A stretch of 64,000 bases of DNA from a virus. The position numbers and the translations under genes were made by a program. The notes under the pieces were generated by a model that was not told the DNA's origin, ran no database searches, and was given only the letters and a program-made list of their open reading frames with translations. This document shows, in pieces, positions 1-24,719 of the stretch. Position 1 is the stretch's first letter. Each line of letters starts with the position of its first letter. Location: positions 1-64,000 of the IMG/VR virus record IMGVR_UViG_3300045988_023742, one strand, 5' to 3'.

Positions 1-1
1 A

Positions 2-211
2 GAGATTATTCCTAGATTAAATGGAGGTAATACAACACAATATAAGTGTAATTATCACTGGATTAATAATGCTACAGGATTAAGAACGCTCGTTCTTGGT
101 GGCAGCGCTATTAGGGGTGGTGATGCTGGCTTGGGTGGCTTCAGCTCTAACGATGGTGTGGGTAATGCTAATGCTAGTCTCGGGTTCCGTTCTTCATGTG
201 TTGTAGCTTAA
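2..211 (+). CDS. 3' end of the DGR target gene: C-terminal Mtd-like C-type-lectin-fold variable domain, probably a tail-fibre or receptor-binding protein. The 5' part lies outside the window.
   Basis: Frame 2 is open from the window edge to TAA at 209-211. The translation ends LVLGGSAIRGGDAGLGGFSSNDGVGNANASLGFRSSCVVA*, a Gly/Asn/Ala-rich stretch closed by GFR, as in known DGR variable regions. The last ~40 codons are repeated at 405-520 beside an RT gene. Confidence 0.7.
   Translation, partial: EIIPRLNGGNTTQYKCNYHWINNATGLRTLVLGGSAIRGGDAGLGGFSSNDGVGNANASLGFRSSCVVA
89..204 (+). repeat. DGR variable region (VR) plus an IMH-like 3' end
   Basis: This is an imperfect direct repeat of 405-520 (offset 316, then 317 after a 1-nt indel). 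Over 89-194, 80 of 106 aligned positions are identical. It lies in the last codons of the target ORF and is much more GC-rich than its surroundings. Confidence 0.75.
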
Positions 212-232
212 AATAAAAAAGTTCTTAAAATA

Positions 233-264
233 TTTGGTCAATTCAAAAACTTTTTGTAACTTTG
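233..264 (+). promoter_or_regulatory. Bacteroidota-type promoter upstream of the TR-RT unit
   Basis: TTTG (233-236), 20 nt spacer, TAACTTTG (257-264), followed by CAC. The same architecture occurs at 7432, 14689, 22001 and on the - strand at 44716. Confidence 0.55.
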
Positions 265-404
265 CACCTGTTAATGTAAGTGGGGTTTGCATACCCCTTA
301 TAAAACTTAACAACAGTGAGTAAACACTGGAGTAAAATCAGGTTATTATGTTATCCTGAATTACAGTATGCTTAGTTATTCTTGAGTTCTCTAAAAAGTA
401 AAAA

Positions 405-520
405 CTCGTTCTGGGTTGCCGCGCCTGTTGGTGGGGGTTTTGCGGGCTTGGGTTGCTTCGGTTCTCTCCTTGGGGTGGGTGCTGCTTTTGCTGCGGTCGG
501 GTTCCGTTCTTAATGTGTTA
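405..520 (+). repeat. DGR template-repeat-like copy (TR position), entirely free of adenine over 405-511
   Basis: It sits between the target gene and the RT, downstream of a promoter, and is non-coding. It shares with the VR the identical 15-nt block tcgggttccgttctt (180-194 = 497-511). There is no A between A404 and A512. Confidence 0.7.
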
Positions 521-624
521 ATGTTCTTGTGATTATAAATCTCCCTGCTGTAGGGAGTGGAGCTTAATAACCTTGCCTCTTGGCAAAAGATAACGTAGTT
601 TTACAAATCAAAATAGTGTTGGTA

Positions 625-653
625 GGTCATAGGGGATTATTTCTCCTATGACC
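625..653 (+). other. Strong RNA hairpin in the TR-to-RT spacer, a candidate DGR RNA structural element
   Basis: ggtcatagggga (625-636) pairs with tctcctatgacc (642-653): a 12-bp stem with one G-U and a 5-nt loop. Smaller hairpins lie at 541-557 (ctccc/gggag) and 573-586 (ttgcc/ggcaa). Confidence 0.4.
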
Positions 654-706
654 GTTTGAAGGCTCTAGAGAAAGTAACACATGAATTGTGTTTGATGTAA
701 AAGAGA

Positions 707-1921
707 ATGAAGAGACTTAATGGACTTCATGACAGAATCTGCACTTTACAGAACATTGAAGAAGCAGATAAAAATGCAAGAAAGGGTAAACATAACTGGG
801 GTATAATTAAGCATGACCAACATGCTAAAGAAGATAATGAGAAATTATTGGAAACCCTAGAGACTCTTTCCTATACTACTTCAGAGTATAGCAAATACAA
901 GATTTATGAACCAAAAGAAAGAATAATATTTAGACTTCCATATTATCCAGACAGAATAGCTCAATGGGCTATAATGAATGTGATGGAACCCATTTGGACA
1001 GCATCTTTTATAGGTCACACTTACTCTTGTATAAAGGAAAGAGGAATCCATAAACTTGCGCAAGATGTAAAGAAAGCTTTAATAACTGATGCAGAAGGTA
1101 CTATATATTGTTTGAAGATTGATGTTAGAAAGTTTTATCCTTCTATCAATCATAGAACAATGAAAAGATTGCTAAGAAGAAAGATAAAGGATGAAAAGCT
1201 ATTAGTAATACTTGATGAAATAGTTGATTCAGCTGAAGGTGTTCCAATAGGAAATTATTTATCTCAGTTCTTTGCCAACTTGTACCTTACATACTTTGAC
1301 CATTGGTTACTTGAACATGTATGTATCAAACATTACTTTAGGTACGCTGATGACATAGTAATACTATCAGATAGTAGAGAATCCTTAGAGAAGATTTTAA
1401 TACTAATTAAAACATACTTTTCTTGTGAGTTACAAATAAAAATCAAACCTAATTATCAAATCTTTAAAATTGAAGATAGAGGTATTGACTTTGCAGGTTA
1501 TGTATTTTTCCATACTCATACAAAATTAAGAAAGAACATAAAGCAAAGACTATTTAAACTCGTTAATAAGTTTATCTCAGGTAAGGTAACAGAAGAGGAG
1601 TTTAGAAAGAGAATAACTTCTTACTTTGGTTGGTTGAAATACTGTGATTCAAAACATCTTTTACAGAAGATAGAAGAAGAAACAGACATTCATTTATCCA
1701 ATTGGAATGGTGAGAAATCTATAATTAGTAATTTCTATGATAAAACAGTAAGAGTAATTGAAGTTATAGAGTATAGTGGTTATTTTCAAGTACACTTCAT
1801 TTATAAGAATAAACCCTATTCTATCAATAGTAGAAATAAAGCTCTGCATGAAAAGTTAAAAAGCAAGCAATATCCAGTAAACTTTAAGATTAGAAAATAT
1901 GTTAGAGCCAAAGAGAATTGA
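707..1921 (+). CDS. DGR-type reverse transcriptase
   Basis: 404-aa ORF with the DGR-RT hallmark IGNYLSQ (1247-1267) and the catalytic YADD box (1343-1354, YADDIVIL). It is adjacent to a VR/TR-like repeat pair. Confidence 0.9.
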   Translation: MKRLNGLHDRICTLQNIEEADKNARKGKHNWGIIKHDQHAKEDNEKLLETLETLSYTTSEYSKYKIYEPKERIIFRLPYYPDRIAQWAIMNVMEPIWTASFIGHTYSCIKERGIHKLAQDVKKALITDAEGTIYCLKIDVRKFYPSINHRTMKRLLRRKIKDEKLLVILDEIVDSAEGVPIGNYLSQFFANLYLTYFDHWLLEHVCIKHYFRYADDIVILSDSRESLEKILILIKTYFSCELQIKIKPNYQIFKIEDRGIDFAGYVFFHTHTKLRKNIKQRLFKLVNKFISGKVTEEEFRKRITSYFGWLKYCDSKHLLQKIEEETDIHLSNWNGEKSIISNFYDKTVRVIEVIEYSGYFQVHFIYKNKPYSINSRNKALHEKLKSKQYPVNFKIRKYVRAKEN

Positions 1922-2279
1922 TTCAAATATAGCACCTGCTATTACTGAAAATCTTGGTAATGGTAATTGGTACTATAACTATGACATTAAGTCTGAGAAA
2001 GTTGAATTACCTCTTCAAGAGGGTGAAACAGTACCTAAAGAGGAAATTAGATATAACTATATTCAGATTAAATTGTCAGAGAAGCCTGAATATAAGAAGT
2101 GTGTAGAACTTCTTATTAGAGAGTTTATTACTCAAACACAGGAATTTGACTTAATTAACTCTGCTAACAAGGCTATCCTGTCAGGAGCTAAGTCAAGTGA
2201 AGACATAACTAAGTACAGAGAATACCTTGATAAGGTGGAGGAAATAAAAGAAAAGGTAACAAAAGACCTTGGTAAATAA
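1899..2279 (+). CDS. Hypothetical protein downstream of the RT, overlapping it by 23 nt. The C-terminal half looks helical.
   Basis: 126-aa ORF with a single Met, followed by a terminator hairpin. I recognised no motif. Confidence 0.45.
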   Translation: MLEPKRIDSNIAPAITENLGNGNWYYNYDIKSEKVELPLQEGETVPKEEIRYNYIQIKLSEKPEYKKCVELLIREFITQTQEFDLINSANKAILSGAKSSEDITKYREYLDKVEEIKEKVTKDLGK

Positions 2280-2285
2280 ATAATA

Positions 2286-2319
2286 ATCCACTTATACTAT
2301 TGTGTAAGTGGATTTTTTA
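2286..2319 (+). terminator. Rho-independent terminator ending the DGR operon
   Basis: atccactta (2286-2294) pairs with taagtggat (2305-2313), with a 10-nt loop, followed by a T6 run. Confidence 0.6.
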
Positions 2320-2322
2320 TTA

Positions 2323-2330
2323 TATCTTTG
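2323..2330 (+). promoter_or_regulatory. -7 box of a Bacteroidota-type promoter (TATCTTTG) directly before the lipoprotein start codon
   Basis: TAnnTTTG followed by CA, as in the other copies. It lies only 4 nt upstream of ATG 2335, and I found no clear -33 element. Confidence 0.35.
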
Positions 2331-2334
2331 CAAC

Positions 2335-2715
2335 ATGAAAAAGTTAGTACTTATAATGTTAGCTATCTTAATGCTTTCAGCTTGCAAGACTACTACAAAG
2401 ATTGTAGAAGTTCCTGTTGAAGTTGTAAAGAAAGAATATATACATGATACTAAAATAGATAGTGTATATATTAGAGATAGTGTTGATAGGTGGCAAAAGG
2501 GTGATACTTTATATATTACTAAGTGGCATACAAAGTTCAAGTATATAAATAAAGTAGATACCATAGTTAAAACTGATTCTATTCCAAAGATAGTACCAGT
2601 AGTGAAGGAAGTAGAAGTGAACCACATCTATTGGTGGCAAAAGACCTTGATGTGGGTAGGAGGTATATTATCAACTTGTATAATAATCTCTTTAATTCAT
2701 AAACTTAAAAAATGA
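2335..2715 (+). CDS. Outer-membrane lipoprotein with a C-terminal transmembrane helix (unimolecular-spanin-like architecture)
   Basis: MKKLVLIMLAILMLSAC is a signal peptide with an LSAC lipobox, and WVGGILSTCIIISLIHKL is a C-terminal TM segment. I prefer the ATG at 2335 over the track's GTG at 2308, which lies inside the terminator hairpin. Confidence 0.55.
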   Translation: MKKLVLIMLAILMLSACKTTTKIVEVPVEVVKKEYIHDTKIDSVYIRDSVDRWQKGDTLYITKWHTKFKYINKVDTIVKTDSIPKIVPVVKEVEVNHIYWWQKTLMWVGGILSTCIIISLIHKLKK

Positions 2716-22052: not shown

Positions 22053-24719
22053 ATGGCTAATAGAATTAATAATAGAAGATATAATAAGCTATTAAGTTAT
22101 AGAAATAACTATTATATGTATGGAAGTCAGATGCAAAATAACTCATACAGACTTAATGGTAGATACTCTACTCCTGCTATTGTAGATGGTATGGGTGGAG
22201 CACAGAATCCTAGTCAAGGTTATGAAGCACCTCAGCCTCCTTCTATAAAGCAACCAGGATTATTTGGTAATCTTGGAGAAACACTAAAGAGTGGGTTTCA
22301 GTCAGGTGCTCTTAATGGTGCTGCTACTGCCGTTGGTGGTATGATAGGAGGTGCTATTGGAGGTGGAATGTCTAGTGGTGTAGGAAATACAATAGATAGT
22401 TTGGGTAACTTAGCTAGTGCCATTCCAGGACCTTGGGGTGCAGTAGCAGGAGCTGGTCTAAAAGTCATTGGAGGCTTAACAAATAGAATGTTTGGTTCTA
22501 AAATGAACAAAGAAAATATTGCTAATGTTGAAGGTACCATTAATAGACTTAATAGTTTCCAATCAGATGCAAGTAACTTTGATACTTTAGCTGATACTTG
22601 GGGAAGCACTGCTATGGGAAATAATTTCTCTAATAAGTATATTGGTAAGGATGGTTGGTTCTCTCATAAGGCAAAGAAAAAAGCAAGAAAGCTAAGAGAA
22701 CAAATGGAATTAGCTAATGCTTTTGCTGAGAATACATTACAAAACAATGCTGATAATATTACAGAAACTACAATGAATAATCTAGAAGCAAACTATGCAG
22801 CTTTAGGAGGATTTCTTAATCAATATGCTGATGGTGGAGGTATTTATATCAATCCTAAGAATAGAGGTAAATTCAATGCCACTAAAGAAAGAACTGGAAA
22901 AACTACAGAGGAGCTAACACATAGTAAGAATCCATTAACTCGAAAGAGAGCAATATTTGCTCAGAATGCAGCAAAGTGGCATCATGCTTTTGGTGGTGAG
23001 TTAAATACTAATGGTGGAGATTTTTCTACAGGACTTATGTTTATTGATGAAGGAGGCACACATGAAAGTAATCCTTATGAAGGTGTTCCTATGGGTGTAG
23101 CTCCTGATGGTAAACCTAACCTAGTTGAGGAAGGAGAGGCTATATACAATGACTATGTATTTAGTAATAGATTAACTGTTCCTAAAGCTATAAGAAATAA
23201 ATATAAGCTAAGAGGAACTAAAGATTTGACTTTTGCTGATGCTGTTAAGCAGATTTCTAAGAATGCCACAGAAAGACCTAATGACTCTATTAGTCAAGAA
23301 ACCTTACATGAGATAATGTCTGATTTAGCTCAGACACAAGAAGGTGTTAGAGAAGAAGCTCATGAAGGAAATAGATTTGATACAGGTGGTTTCACATATA
23401 AACCATATAAATATGTAGCTGGATATAATGGTGGATGGTTTGATAGTGATAGCAATTATACTAAAGACTACTTAGATAAAGTCAATAGTATGAATATTGC
23501 TGATATAAATAATGCCTTTAATGAACAATATAAATTCTATAGTAATGATGCTAATAAAGGCACTGATAGATGGAAAGCTATTGATGCCTTCTACACAGCT
23601 AATCCTCAGTATAAAGTATCTAGTACTAATCTTACTGATGCTGCTCTGCCAAGTATTAGAAAGTTAGCAACTGATGGTAATCCAGGATTTATGCATCAAT
23701 TCTTTAATGATGCAACTCCTATAAAGAGAGCTAACAGATATTTCTTAAGAGGTACAGATGCACAAGGTAATCCTATTGCAACTCCTATGAAAACAACTCC
23801 TTGGGAAGGTCTTAATGAGAAAGGTCAAAGTTTTGCTGAAGCTTTTCCTACTTATAGCTTCAAGGGAAAACAAGAAAGACCTGTAGAAGGAAATACTATC
23901 TATACTGATTATTACTATGATGAAAAGAAACCTTTAGAAACTCCTTCTCCTGAGGAGAAGCCTGAAGATACTCAGGAGATTAAAAATAGTTATGAAGGTT
24001 GGAGATTTGCTCCTGCTATTGGTTTAGGTATGGCAGCATTATCAGATGCTTTGGGTATTACTAATAATCCAGATTATACTGAGGCAGCTCAAATAGAGGC
24101 AGCTACAAGAGGAGGTTCTTATATGCCTGTATCATGGAATCCTATTGGTAACAAACTTACCTATAGACCATTTGATAGAGATTACTATATTAATAAACTT
24201 AATGCAGAAGCTGGTGCTACAAGGAGAGCTCTAGCCAATCAAAGTGGTGGCAATAGTGGTAGAGCAATGGCAGGCATTCTTGCTGCTGACTATAATGCTC
24301 AAGATAGATTAGGTGACTTATTTAGAAAGTCTGAAGAGTATAATCTAGAACAAAGACAAAAGGTTGAAGACTTTAATAGAGCTACTAATCAAGCTAACTC
24401 ACAAGGTGAACTGCAAGCTGATATGGCTAATCAGCAAGCCTATGCAAGTGCAAGAGACTATGCTCTTAAGGGCATAATGGCTGCTGCTGAAATGAGACAA
24501 AAGGCTAGAATGGCTGCTGAAGCTGCTAAGTCTGCTAATCTAAGTGGGTTCTTATCTGCTCTTGGTGATATAGGTTATGAGAATAAAGGTATGAACATGG
24601 TGAGACAACTTTATGCTACTGGTGCTCTTGGTCCTATGTCTAGAGCACAGGCAGAAGGGTTCAATCTTGTGAAGTCAAAGCCTAAGAAGAAAAAGTCAAA
24701 GAGTTTAACAAGAAAGTAA
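22053..24719 (+). CDS. Virion protein with an N-terminal glycine-zipper region and a poly-Lys tail (candidate ejected or membrane-active protein)
   Basis: 888 aa. GLFGNLG...GAATAVGGMIGGAIGGGMSSGVGN...GPWGAVAGAGLKVIGG contains repeated small-xxx-small spacing. The C-terminus is KSKPKKKKSKSLTRK. Confidence 0.55.
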   Translation: MANRINNRRYNKLLSYRNNYYMYGSQMQNNSYRLNGRYSTPAIVDGMGGAQNPSQGYEAPQPPSIKQPGLFGNLGETLKSGFQSGALNGAATAVGGMIGGAIGGGMSSGVGNTIDSLGNLASAIPGPWGAVAGAGLKVIGGLTNRMFGSKMNKENIANVEGTINRLNSFQSDASNFDTLADTWGSTAMGNNFSNKYIGKDGWFSHKAKKKARKLREQMELANAFAENTLQNNADNITETTMNNLEANYAALGGFLNQYADGGGIYINPKNRGKFNATKERTGKTTEELTHSKNPLTRKRAIFAQNAAKWHHAFGGELNTNGGDFSTGLMFIDEGGTHESNPYEGVPMGVAPDGKPNLVEEGEAIYNDYVFSNRLTVPKAIRNKYKLRGTKDLTFADAVKQISKNATERPNDSISQETLHEIMSDLAQTQEGVREEAHEGNRFDTGGFTYKPYKYVAGYNGGWFDSDSNYTKDYLDKVNSMNIADINNAFNEQYKFYSNDANKGTDRWKAIDAFYTANPQYKVSSTNLTDAALPSIRKLATDGNPGFMHQFFNDATPIKRANRYFLRGTDAQGNPIATPMKTTPWEGLNEKGQSFAEAFPTYSFKGKQERPVEGNTIYTDYYYDEKKPLETPSPEEKPEDTQEIKNSYEGWRFAPAIGLGMAALSDALGITNNPDYTEAAQIEAATRGGSYMPVSWNPIGNKLTYRPFDRDYYINKLNAEAGATRRALANQSGGNSGRAMAGILAADYNAQDRLGDLFRKSEEYNLEQRQKVEDFNRATNQANSQGELQADMANQQAYASARDYALKGIMAAAEMRQKARMAAEAAKSANLSGFLSALGDIGYENKGMNMVRQLYATGALGPMSRAQAEGFNLVKSKPKKKKSKSLTRK

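Follow-up and report, generated by a model that had tools for sequence, protein, structure and literature searches.

Diversity-generating retroelements (DGRs) mutagenise only the adenines of a template repeat (TR), and they have been described as good for unlimited rounds, the template never being altered. Doulatov et al. in 2004 reportedly saw the TR of BPP-1, whose DGR comprises Mtd, TR and bRT, become variable only once IMH* had been engineered to IMH. Mutagenesis in BPP-1 is adenine-specific, with an A-to-G bias and an effect of the 3′ neighbour, and a template-slippage bias has been reported for the Bordetella reverse transcriptase (RT) (PMC12875486). DGRs of crAss-like phages are already known, the LMMB type of crAssphage having the order target gene, variable repeat (VR, with IMH), TR (with IMH*) and RT, without avd. 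Many genomes of this group carry decayed cassettes, the decay consisting of truncation or loss of the RT, the TR or the target (PMC7290462). In the stretch described here, positions 1 to 64,000 of the IMG/VR record IMGVR_UViG_3300045988_023742 (the window), every part of such a cassette is present at full length, in contrast to those decayed cassettes, and the TR is without adenines.

Organisation of the cassette

The cassette is a DGR of the known crAss type, in the order target, VR, TR and RT and without avd. It resembles the LMMB type in this order and also in its target, a tail protein whose C-terminus is of CLec type, and in its location at the end of the structural module (PMC7290462). 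The features, all on the plus strand, are as follows.

2–211 (+): 3′ end of the DGR target gene, a tail protein (frame-2 translation, stop codon 209–211)
88–194 (+): variable repeat (VR); 13 template-adenine positions still A, frozen in this lineage
195–206 (+): IMH-like tail CATGTGTTGTAG after the VR, differing from the sequence after the TR
233–264 (+): Bacteroides-type promoter-like motif TTTG-N20-TAACTTTG (consensus match only), a possible start of the TR–RT transcript
282–297 (+): short G+C hairpin GGGGT/ACCCC (fold and strain alignment)
405–511 (+): template repeat (TR), 107 nt, each adenine substituted (0 A)
512–523 (+): IMH*-like tail AATGTGTTAATG after the TR, the same as in sister strains
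569–682 (+): structured spacer RNA between TR and RT, RT-17-like (hairpins 574–585 and 625–653)
707–1921 (+): DGR reverse transcriptase, intact, 404 aa (motifs, Pfam and structure-database match)
2285–2314 (+): terminator-like hairpin 3′ of a 126-aa ORF (1899–2279)

The features described in an initial annotation, which had read the locus as a DGR attached to the receptor-binding gene of a crAss-like phage, were all confirmed in place; its interpretation of the cassette is partly supported. The crAss-like context is upheld, with 90% identity to IAS virus over 1884–2400 and 94% identity to crAssphage cr116_1 over 2400–24000. Both are Crassvirales of the Steigviridae, where the window phage belongs as their relative, whereas the LMMB type belongs to genus I of the alpha crAss group. 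A promoter had been proposed at 233–264; the motif is there, but as a consensus match only, of which the window has seven where three would be expected. The outer pair of the short hairpin (columns 282 and 297) shows a compensatory change from G–C to A–T in strain L084. The terminator, previously placed at 2286–2319, was found as a terminator-like hairpin. The 126-aa ORF upstream of it also occurs in relatives without a DGR and therefore lies outside the cassette. Avd was looked for in two places: the 200-nt gap between VR and TR contains just a 39-aa minus-strand ORF, and the 126-aa ORF downstream of the RT has no Avd-like Pfam match. The missing Avd does not exclude DGR membership, since Avd has been reported absent from crAss-type (lineage 3) DGRs (PMC7290462).

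The reverse transcriptase and spacer RNA

The 404-aa ORF at 707–1921 carries the [LIV]GxxxSQ and YxDD signatures of DGR RTs as IGNYLSQ and YADD, as annotated, and matches Pfam RVT_1. Its best match among solved structures is 8ub7 (E 2.3e-43, residues 2–326), the DGR RT of a Bordetella phage. RTs of the group II intron and retron types match at 1e-17, so that, by E-values of PDB matches, the protein is nearer to the DGR RT than to these classes, as had been proposed. I294V is the only lineage-specific amino acid change in comparison with the sister strains. The spacer at 569–682 aligns across the whole of the Rfam model RT-17 (RF03020), including the conserved ACCUUGCC..GGCAAAA hairpin; the window copy differs in its longer inserts and, at 27.8 bits, falls short of the 40.4-bit gathering score. 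In the relative L054 the motif, likewise located immediately ahead of the RT start codon, reaches 45.8 bits. The RT-17 motif had no known function at the time of its description.

The target protein and the variable repeat

The target gene runs off the left edge of the window (2–208 in frame 2, with the stop codon at 209–211) and is complete on the contig L082 (3316–5505), where it encodes 729 aa with the VR spanning codons 688–720. The protein has a match to PHROG 5302, annotated as tail protein; sequence searches of Pfam, NCBIfam and the PDB yielded nothing of use. An AF2 model, built from an alignment of 76 diverse representatives, has pLDDT >95 across residues 220–729, and the top PDB match in Foldseek is TaqVP (5vf4, probability 1.0), with Mtd and FGE next. 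The C-terminus is predicted with high confidence to adopt a CLec/FGE-type fold whose nearest structure is a DGR variable protein, and the C-type-lectin fold proposed from the sequence came through this comparison of models.

The two repeats pair over 89–202 and 405–519 with 75% identity and a 1-nt indel, much as had been noted. The 15-mer TCGGGTTCCGTTCTT occurs only at 180–194 and 497–511, and the sequences diverge beyond it as described, into CATGTGTTGTAG on the VR side and AATGTGTTAATG on the TR side. A shared 3′ box followed by differing tails makes these the candidate IMH and IMH*. The 15-mer itself, previously taken as the signature of the IMH, proved to be a derived state, intact TRs having TCAGGTTCC there and not TCGGGTTCC. 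In intact strains, the shared box has a single differing position, A in the TR and G in the VR; in the window, both copies have G at this position.

The template repeat has no adenine

The TR (405–511) is an adenine-free run of 107 nt in a window that is 34% A, four-fold longer than any other (the next longest in the 64 kb is 26 nt). The initial annotation overlooked both this and the distribution of the mismatches, which are not confined to the adenines of that copy. Whereas the differences between the TR and VR of a DGR all fall at TR adenines, the 27 substitutions between the two copies in the window lie at G, T and C of a TR copy with none. As a TR without adenine leaves nothing to mutagenise, the element in the window is predicted to be no longer able to diversify the tail protein. 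The suggestion that host range is programmable in this lineage, "at least historically", holds for the past; for the present it is contradicted by the adenine-free TR and its 1-nt insertion.

That the locus is nonetheless a working DGR, now diversifying the receptor-binding protein, was the earlier reading, and the RT is indeed intact and of DGR type, the VR/TR pair, IMH-like tails, spacer RNA and CLec target are all there, and the sister strains are active. However, there is no substrate for mutagenesis, the copies mismatch at G, T and C of the TR, the inserted base would shift the frame of the VR and the same VR is found in three assemblies. Mutagenesis of other bases is opposed by the pattern of mismatches at adenines only, which is seen in about 60 relatives from IMG/VR as well as in 25 sister contigs (TR/VR pairs in relatives were identified with a self-BLAST DGR finder). 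We regard a working element as highly improbable; the sequence already contradicts it, and the locus is best described as a DGR by descent, though not in its present state.

None of 80 IMG/VR relatives has an adenine-free TR upstream of the RT, and their long adenine-free runs are VRs of up to 61 nt. In the literature covered, which took in few subscription papers, neither an adenine-free nor a self-mutagenised TR was found to have been reported from nature.

Comparison with sister strains

Contigs of the same species, all gathered by protein look-ups, provide the comparison. Twenty-five of them, with near-identical flanks and RT, have a 106-nt TR with 30 adenines, and all 30 are non-A in the window; these contigs include strains with only 85–90% RT identity. 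One such contig (L083) differs from the window by about 3% over 1–2400 and has the TR with 30 A between flanks (205–404 and 512–720) that equal those of the window bar one SNP at 385. Against the intact TR, the window TR is altered at 30 A (to G at 16, T at 9 and C at 5), and has in addition five T-to-G changes and one inserted C near 424–425. This gives 36 changes in 107 nt, as against 5–11 nt in 1400 for the spacer and RT between the window and the sister strains. Position 404, the A directly before the TR, is kept in the window; it is G in half of the VRs. Exact-pattern scans with the 3′ flank of the TR gave no match in JGI metagenome contigs, IMG/VR or GTDB genomes.

Among 15 strains there are 15 distinct VRs, the 14 from strains with an intact TR all being different; a comparison of VRs among related genomes had been proposed as a check. 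This argues that the element is clearly active in the sister strains, each of which has its own VR. The adenine-free TR is identical in three assemblies from separate runs (the window, ERR321474 and ERR209463), and the VR is identical in the three as well (window, L082 and L116), with no ongoing diversification of the VR among the assembled contigs of this lineage. Its exact target protein occurs on 9–12 contigs; the other full-length variants occur on one contig each. A separate lineage, in which at least 24 contigs share a single VR, has its TR and RT deleted. Loss of the DGR recurs in the genus, by deletion in IAS virus and the P0123 lineage, and the RT genes of L086, L088 and L111 are broken. 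In the TR of L084 only the first five adenines are replaced, and we read this TR as an intermediate.

Many short contigs of the species break inside the box shared by VR and TR, and the region is hard to assemble. An artefact of assembly or sequencing, such as VR-variant reads collapsed into the TR, nevertheless has a negligible probability: three assemblies, each from a different run, have the same 107 nt bordered left and right by unique sequence, and the VRs in the population contain adenines, so that mixing them could not yield an adenine-free consensus. Alignment with the sister strains shows, at the level of sequence, that the window TR derives from the intact TR through changes at all of its adenines, that the lineage is real and that its VR is fixed.

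Origin of the adenine-free template

The adenines were probably lost as cDNA made by the element itself, and mutagenised at adenines, retrohomed into the TR again and again. In the ancestral state, represented by most strains, the RT would copy TR RNA to cDNA while misreading adenines, and the cDNA would replace the VR in the terminal part of the tail-protein gene. In the window lineage, the mutagenised cDNA would also have replaced the TR itself, several times. With non-adenine bases copied faithfully and adenines not, each rewriting of the TR would strip adenines permanently, up to an adenine-free TR with secondary RT errors (the five T-to-G changes and the 1-nt insertion). The RT gene is still intact although diversification is lost, and any new transfer of cDNA into the VR would leave the tail protein destroyed by a frameshifted sequence without adenines.

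Replacements in the TR are 16 G, 9 T and 5 C, a spectrum similar to that of the VRs, in which G, T and C make up 64%, 19% and 17% of changes at the same sites. About 32% of adenines are retained per rewrite in VRs, and the probability of losing 30 of 30 in one round is about 1e-6. Four of the five T-to-G changes would be synonymous in a VR, yet they are rare there, which argues for many rounds. The joint likelihood of the number of rounds peaks at about 15–20, with a minimum of 4–5, a number made uncertain by a per-round retention taken from VRs that are themselves under selection. All five T-to-G changes are immediately 5′ of a G, and 11 of 11 VRs have G at the four-fold degenerate GTA site; both fit the template-slippage bias of the Bordetella RT (PMC12875486). 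Mutagenesis of the antisense strand was rejected as a source of T-to-G, only 5 of 37 T being changed, all to G and all beside G. From these patterns we infer that the RT of the element itself caused the changes, its cDNA having been integrated into TR DNA over several rounds.

Several observations weigh against self-overwriting, among them the A kept at 404 and the lack of any change outside the TR that would account for self-targeting in this lineage alone. Only one intermediate was found among 29 contigs, and none with, for example, 5–15 adenines left. The VR has never been rewritten from the degraded TR, keeping 13 A and differing from the TR at 7 of 18 non-A sites, which requires that such rewrites were lost by selection.

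Since VR and TR are direct repeats 316 nt apart, the TR might instead have been overwritten from one or more VRs by ordinary homologous recombination (gene conversion), with no reverse transcription. VRs are poor in adenine (5–13 A), and the converted 21-nt stretch in the TR of L084 equals its own VR. However, 0 of 15 VRs is adenine-free, a frameshifting insertion together with T-to-G changes is not expected in a functional VR, and the changed positions in the TR run precisely up to the box that limits cDNA transfer. A window TR copied from its own VR was rejected, because the two differ at 7 of the 18 positions where that VR has no A. We consider gene conversion unlikely. Less probable still is that ordinary point mutations were selected because they shut down a mutator that carried a cost. 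The recurrent losses in the genus make silencing seem tolerated or favoured, but this route needs 30 independent A-specific substitutions in 107 nt, with 0 such changes in 200 nt on either side and one amino acid change in the RT, when a single RT stop codon would suffice, as other strains show.

As for what set off the self-overwriting favoured here, no trigger was found outside the TR: the spacer and the VR–TR gap are without lineage-specific change, and the RT has only its one substitution. Tentatively, directionality of the DGR might be leaky in nature and the template barely protected, a change from TCAGG to TCGGG (A95G) in the TR setting off runaway self-homing; we hold this to be possible but rather doubtful. 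In intact strains and related clades (few independent clades), TR and VR differ in the shared box by one adenine of the TR, at which the VR always has G, or T in other clades (again few independent ones). The RT would convert this adenine deterministically, a TR acquiring TCGGG would become as good a target as the VR, and self-homing would then continue until the adenines were exhausted. If true, the adenine-free lineage would be a natural record of the runaway and of the spectrum of errors that a crAss-phage DGR RT makes in vivo free of selection.

Discussion

The element shares with BPP-1 an RT that is homologous over its full length, mutagenesis that is adenine-specific with an A-to-G bias and a 3′-neighbour effect, a structured RNA in the spacer between TR and RT, a target with a CLec fold and a G+C-rich 3′ box that bounds the transfer. 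It differs in having no Avd, in its spacer type (RT-17 as against RT-10 in BPP-1; PMC5737381) and in that its TR was exhausted naturally while the tail that follows the box stayed as it was.

The adenine-free lineage suggests that the one-way rule for the template can fail in nature, irreversibly and in a self-limiting manner. Exhaustion of the template would be a simple reason for the patchy occurrence of active DGRs even among near-identical phages. Sister strains, distinguished by a single RT residue and by the TR itself, offer near-isogenic controls, and what protects a template may be directly testable in a reconstituted system of the kind set up for BPP-1 in E. coli (PMC12875486). An exhausted, non-coding TR would also record the output of the RT without selection at the protein level. 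DGR finders that need A-specific TR/VR mismatches would miss such loci, and looser ones would mis-call them as active. For the prediction of host range, the receptor-binding protein of this abundant gut phage lineage should be treated as fixed.

Organisation of the cassette

The cassette comprises the end of the target gene, which carries the variable repeat (VR, 88–194), a gap holding the template repeat (TR, 405–511), and the reverse transcriptase (RT) gene.

Features of the cassette in the window
2–208 (frame 2), stop 209–211: 3′ end of the target ORF, open at the left edge
89–202 (last ~40 codons of the target ORF) and 405–519: repeat pair, 75% identity, 1-nt indel
707–1921: RT ORF, 404 aa, with IGNYLSQ and YADD motifs and a Pfam RVT_1 match

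The 15-mer TCGGGTTCCGTTCTT occurs at 180–194 and 497–511 and at no third site in the window. The best solved-structure match of the RT is 8ub7, the Bordetella phage DGR RT (E 2.3e-43, full length); the scores of group II intron and retron-type RTs are near 1e-17. Window 1884–2400 is 90% identical to IAS virus and 2400–24000 is 94% identical to crAssphage cr116_1 (both Crassvirales, Steigviridae), with holin, peptidase, terminase and capsid genes downstream of the cassette. The DGR-type RT, the imperfect repeat of the target ORF end in the gap before it, the shared 15-mer and the crAss-like phage context proposed in the initial annotation are all borne out. No Avd gene was seen adjoining the cassette, and crAss DGRs have been reported without one (PMC7290462).

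The closest deposited genome, cr116_1 (NC_055882, 89500–97500), is 94% identical over the structural module, and its match to the window begins at nt 2266. On the upstream side its gene content differs, and it lacks the target, the RT and the 126-aa ORF. From this comparison the tail-fibre/DGR module appears to be a swapped cassette. A G+C hairpin lies between the VR and TR, and in L084, a strain with a partly degraded TR, it carries a compensatory G-C to A-T change at 282/297, which suggests that the stem matters. It could serve to terminate the target-gene transcript or belong to that of the TR.

The spacer between TR and RT (569–682) aligns to the full Rfam RT-17 model with 27.8 bits, under the threshold of 40.4, and at this place in the cassette relatives reach up to 45.8 bits (contig L054, 2735–2819). 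The spacer RNA in this DGR lineage therefore seems to be RT-17. RT-10 lies in the BPP-1 spacer, and other RT motifs were guessed to serve other DGRs (Weinberg et al., PMC5737381); by its position between TR and RT, RT-17 is likely the counterpart of the BPP-1 spacer RNA.

Fold of the target protein

The 729-aa target belongs to PHROG 5302 (tail protein) and gave no Pfam or PDB match in sequence searches. An AF2 model built from an alignment of 76 diverse homologues has pLDDT >95 over residues 220–729. Its best structural match is the DGR variable protein TaqVP (5vf4, E 1.9e-5, probability 1.0), followed by Mtd and then formylglycine-generating enzymes. The model thus agrees with the C-type-lectin fold that had been suggested, and the target is predicted to be of CLec type. 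Among strains at least 93% identical, residues 196, 467, 471, 534–543, 648 (eight different amino acids) and 681–684 (window 65–76) are hypervariable outside the VR (P0121 numbering of the target). These isolated residues may line the binding surface beside the VR.

An adenine-free template repeat

Window 405–511 is a run of 107 nt without adenine, four times as long as any other in the 64-kb window, whose adenine content is 33.7%. In DGRs, TR and VR are expected to differ only where the TR has an adenine. In the window, the TR copy has G, T or C at the mismatched sites, and 13 adenines of the coding copy stand opposite other bases in the TR-position copy. The initial annotation had placed the repeats correctly but overlooked the absence of adenine from 405–511. 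About 60 IMG/VR relatives of the RT (53–61% identity) have the canonical DGR pattern by self-comparison: the TR (25–33% A) ends ~140 nt before the RT, the VR (5–14% A) lies ~200 nt upstream, and nearly all mismatches fall at TR adenines. None of them has an A-free TR.

Further contigs of this phage species were gathered by way of the RT (whose 90%-identity cluster holds 476 sequences), the adjoining 126-aa ORF and the target protein. A single 106-nt TR with 30 adenines is shared by 25 of the 29 contigs having the region, and it varies among them solely by a T/C allele at one position and, in a single strain, by a C-to-T change. The flanks of the TR in one such sister, L083, are identical to the window over 205–404 and 512–720 except for a SNP at 385. 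Every adenine of the L083 TR is non-A in the window (16 G, 9 T, 5 C), with five further T-to-G changes and one inserted C, and the spacer and RT differ from the sisters by just 5–11 nt in 1400. Changes specific to the lineage outside the TR are at nt 50 (target, D to N), 1586 (RT, I294V) and 1732 (synonymous), with none in the spacer or VR–TR gap relative to the sister strains. The A-free TR is identical in the window and in two Logan assemblies, L082 (ERR321474) and L116 (ERR209463), which rules out an assembly accident. Many short contigs (L098–L110) end in the shared VR/TR 3′ box, ~527–530 nt ahead of the RT start (near window 180). The repeat interrupts assembly, which will bias surveys of the locus.

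A proposed mechanism of adenine loss

The TR changes are confined to the stretch that cDNA transfers. The first changed adenine is nt 408, with the A-rich flank 393–404 kept, and the last is nt 499 in the 3′ box (TCAGG to TCGGG), with AA 512–513 kept. The TR spectrum matches that of VR changes at the same sites (G 64%, T 19%, C 17%). VRs retain 32% of adenines on average; under site-specific rates, a single pass would remove all 30 with a probability of ~1e-6, and the value falls much further if the published misincorporation by the Bordetella RT is used (31% in vivo, 51% in vitro; PMC12875486). Four of the five T-to-G changes would be synonymous in the VR, where such changes number ~0.3 per VR; the five indicate many passes. 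The joint likelihood peaks near 15–20 rounds, and fewer than four are very unlikely.

All five T-to-G changes lie immediately 5′ of G, and at the four-fold degenerate codon that is GTA in the TR, all 11 VRs compared have GTG; therefore A or U before G tends to be read as G. This bias appears strong and not due to selection, and it agrees with the template slippage reported for the Bordetella RT, which depends on the 3′ neighbour (PMC12875486). TR adenines before G (e.g. window 445, 450, 477 and 499) are likewise G in all 11 aligned VRs (among L083–L111).

Given the limits of the changes, the VR-like spectrum, the multi-pass estimates and the G-neighbour bias, we interpret the A-free TR as arising from repeated self-integration. 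Mutagenised cDNA of the element would integrate again and again into its own TR DNA, and adenines would only be lost, never regained, until none remained. The TR of L084 (2008–2113) has lost only its first five adenines and is an intermediate. The 21-nt stretch with these five losses equals the VR of L084 itself (1691–1797), which fits either a later VR rewrite from the partly degraded, still active TR or a short VR-to-TR gene conversion. The window VR keeps 13 adenines and differs from the TR at 7 of 18 non-A sites, and so was not rewritten after the TR degraded. Rewrites from the frameshifted TR would give dead phage and be lost, which fits.

Activity, decay and a possible trigger

All 15 recovered VRs differ from one another, even between strains with identical RT proteins; therefore, the element is active in the species. 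Just one VR occurs in the A-free lineage. The 729-aa target protein of this lineage was recorded in identical form on 9 contigs, or 12 once the contigs themselves were read, and the other full-length variants are on one each. As a control, another target variant occurs on at least 24 contigs (L112–L114 among them) in a lineage with TR and RT cleanly deleted (~310–1868, window equivalent) and one fixed VR, so a VR common to many contigs marks a dead element. Other routes of decay were also seen. In L086, L088 (2309–3523) and L111 (2001–3215), the RT gene is broken up into two or three ORFs beside an intact 30-A TR. IAS virus has a heavily deleted remnant of the same cassette (NC_049978, ~23450–23950; L081 7519–8015) with the target N-terminus, an internal piece, a VR-like stretch and RT fragments. 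Its annotation has nothing between gp081 and the 126-aa ORF, where this remnant sits.

The TR is untouched on 25 contigs and fully consumed in one lineage, whose divergence amounts to three private substitutions over 2.3 kb; this pattern suggests that the loss ran away and did not proceed at a uniformly low rate. The alignments leave two kinds of candidate trigger: the RT change I294V and the changes within the TR itself. The 3′ box that TR and VR share reads TCAGG in the TR of intact strains and TCGGG in their VR, one adenine apart. One adenine of this box is also retained in the TR of related clades, and at that site the VR carries whatever base lies 3′ of the adenine in the TR (G/G at 37 and T/T at 14 of ~53 loci, from few independent clades). 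Loss of this adenine might, as a hypothesis, remove the distinction between TR and VR. Selection for an invariant Gly or Arg codon would explain the VR-side base equally well.

Relation to known DGRs

A 2020 study (PMC7290462) described DGRs of this architecture in crAss-like phages, where truncated cassettes are frequent. The headline of the initial annotation, a DGR in a crAss-like phage, therefore holds as to descent but was already known. In its present state the window locus lacks two of the defining DGR features: its TR/VR mismatches are not A-specific, and the single VR of the A-free lineage gives no sign of ongoing diversification. Literature searches turned up no description of a TR that had lost its adenines in nature. 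Doulatov et al. reportedly observed in 2004 that the BPP-1 TR becomes variable when IMH* is replaced experimentally by IMH (the tails after TR and VR, respectively), so template self-targeting has a laboratory precedent. In BPP-1 the TR was made variable by engineering, whereas in the window lineage it would have been self-targeted in nature. Within one lineage, and by a mechanism that we infer, the locus would thus be an example from nature of a template that targets itself, and near-isogenic strains serve as its controls.
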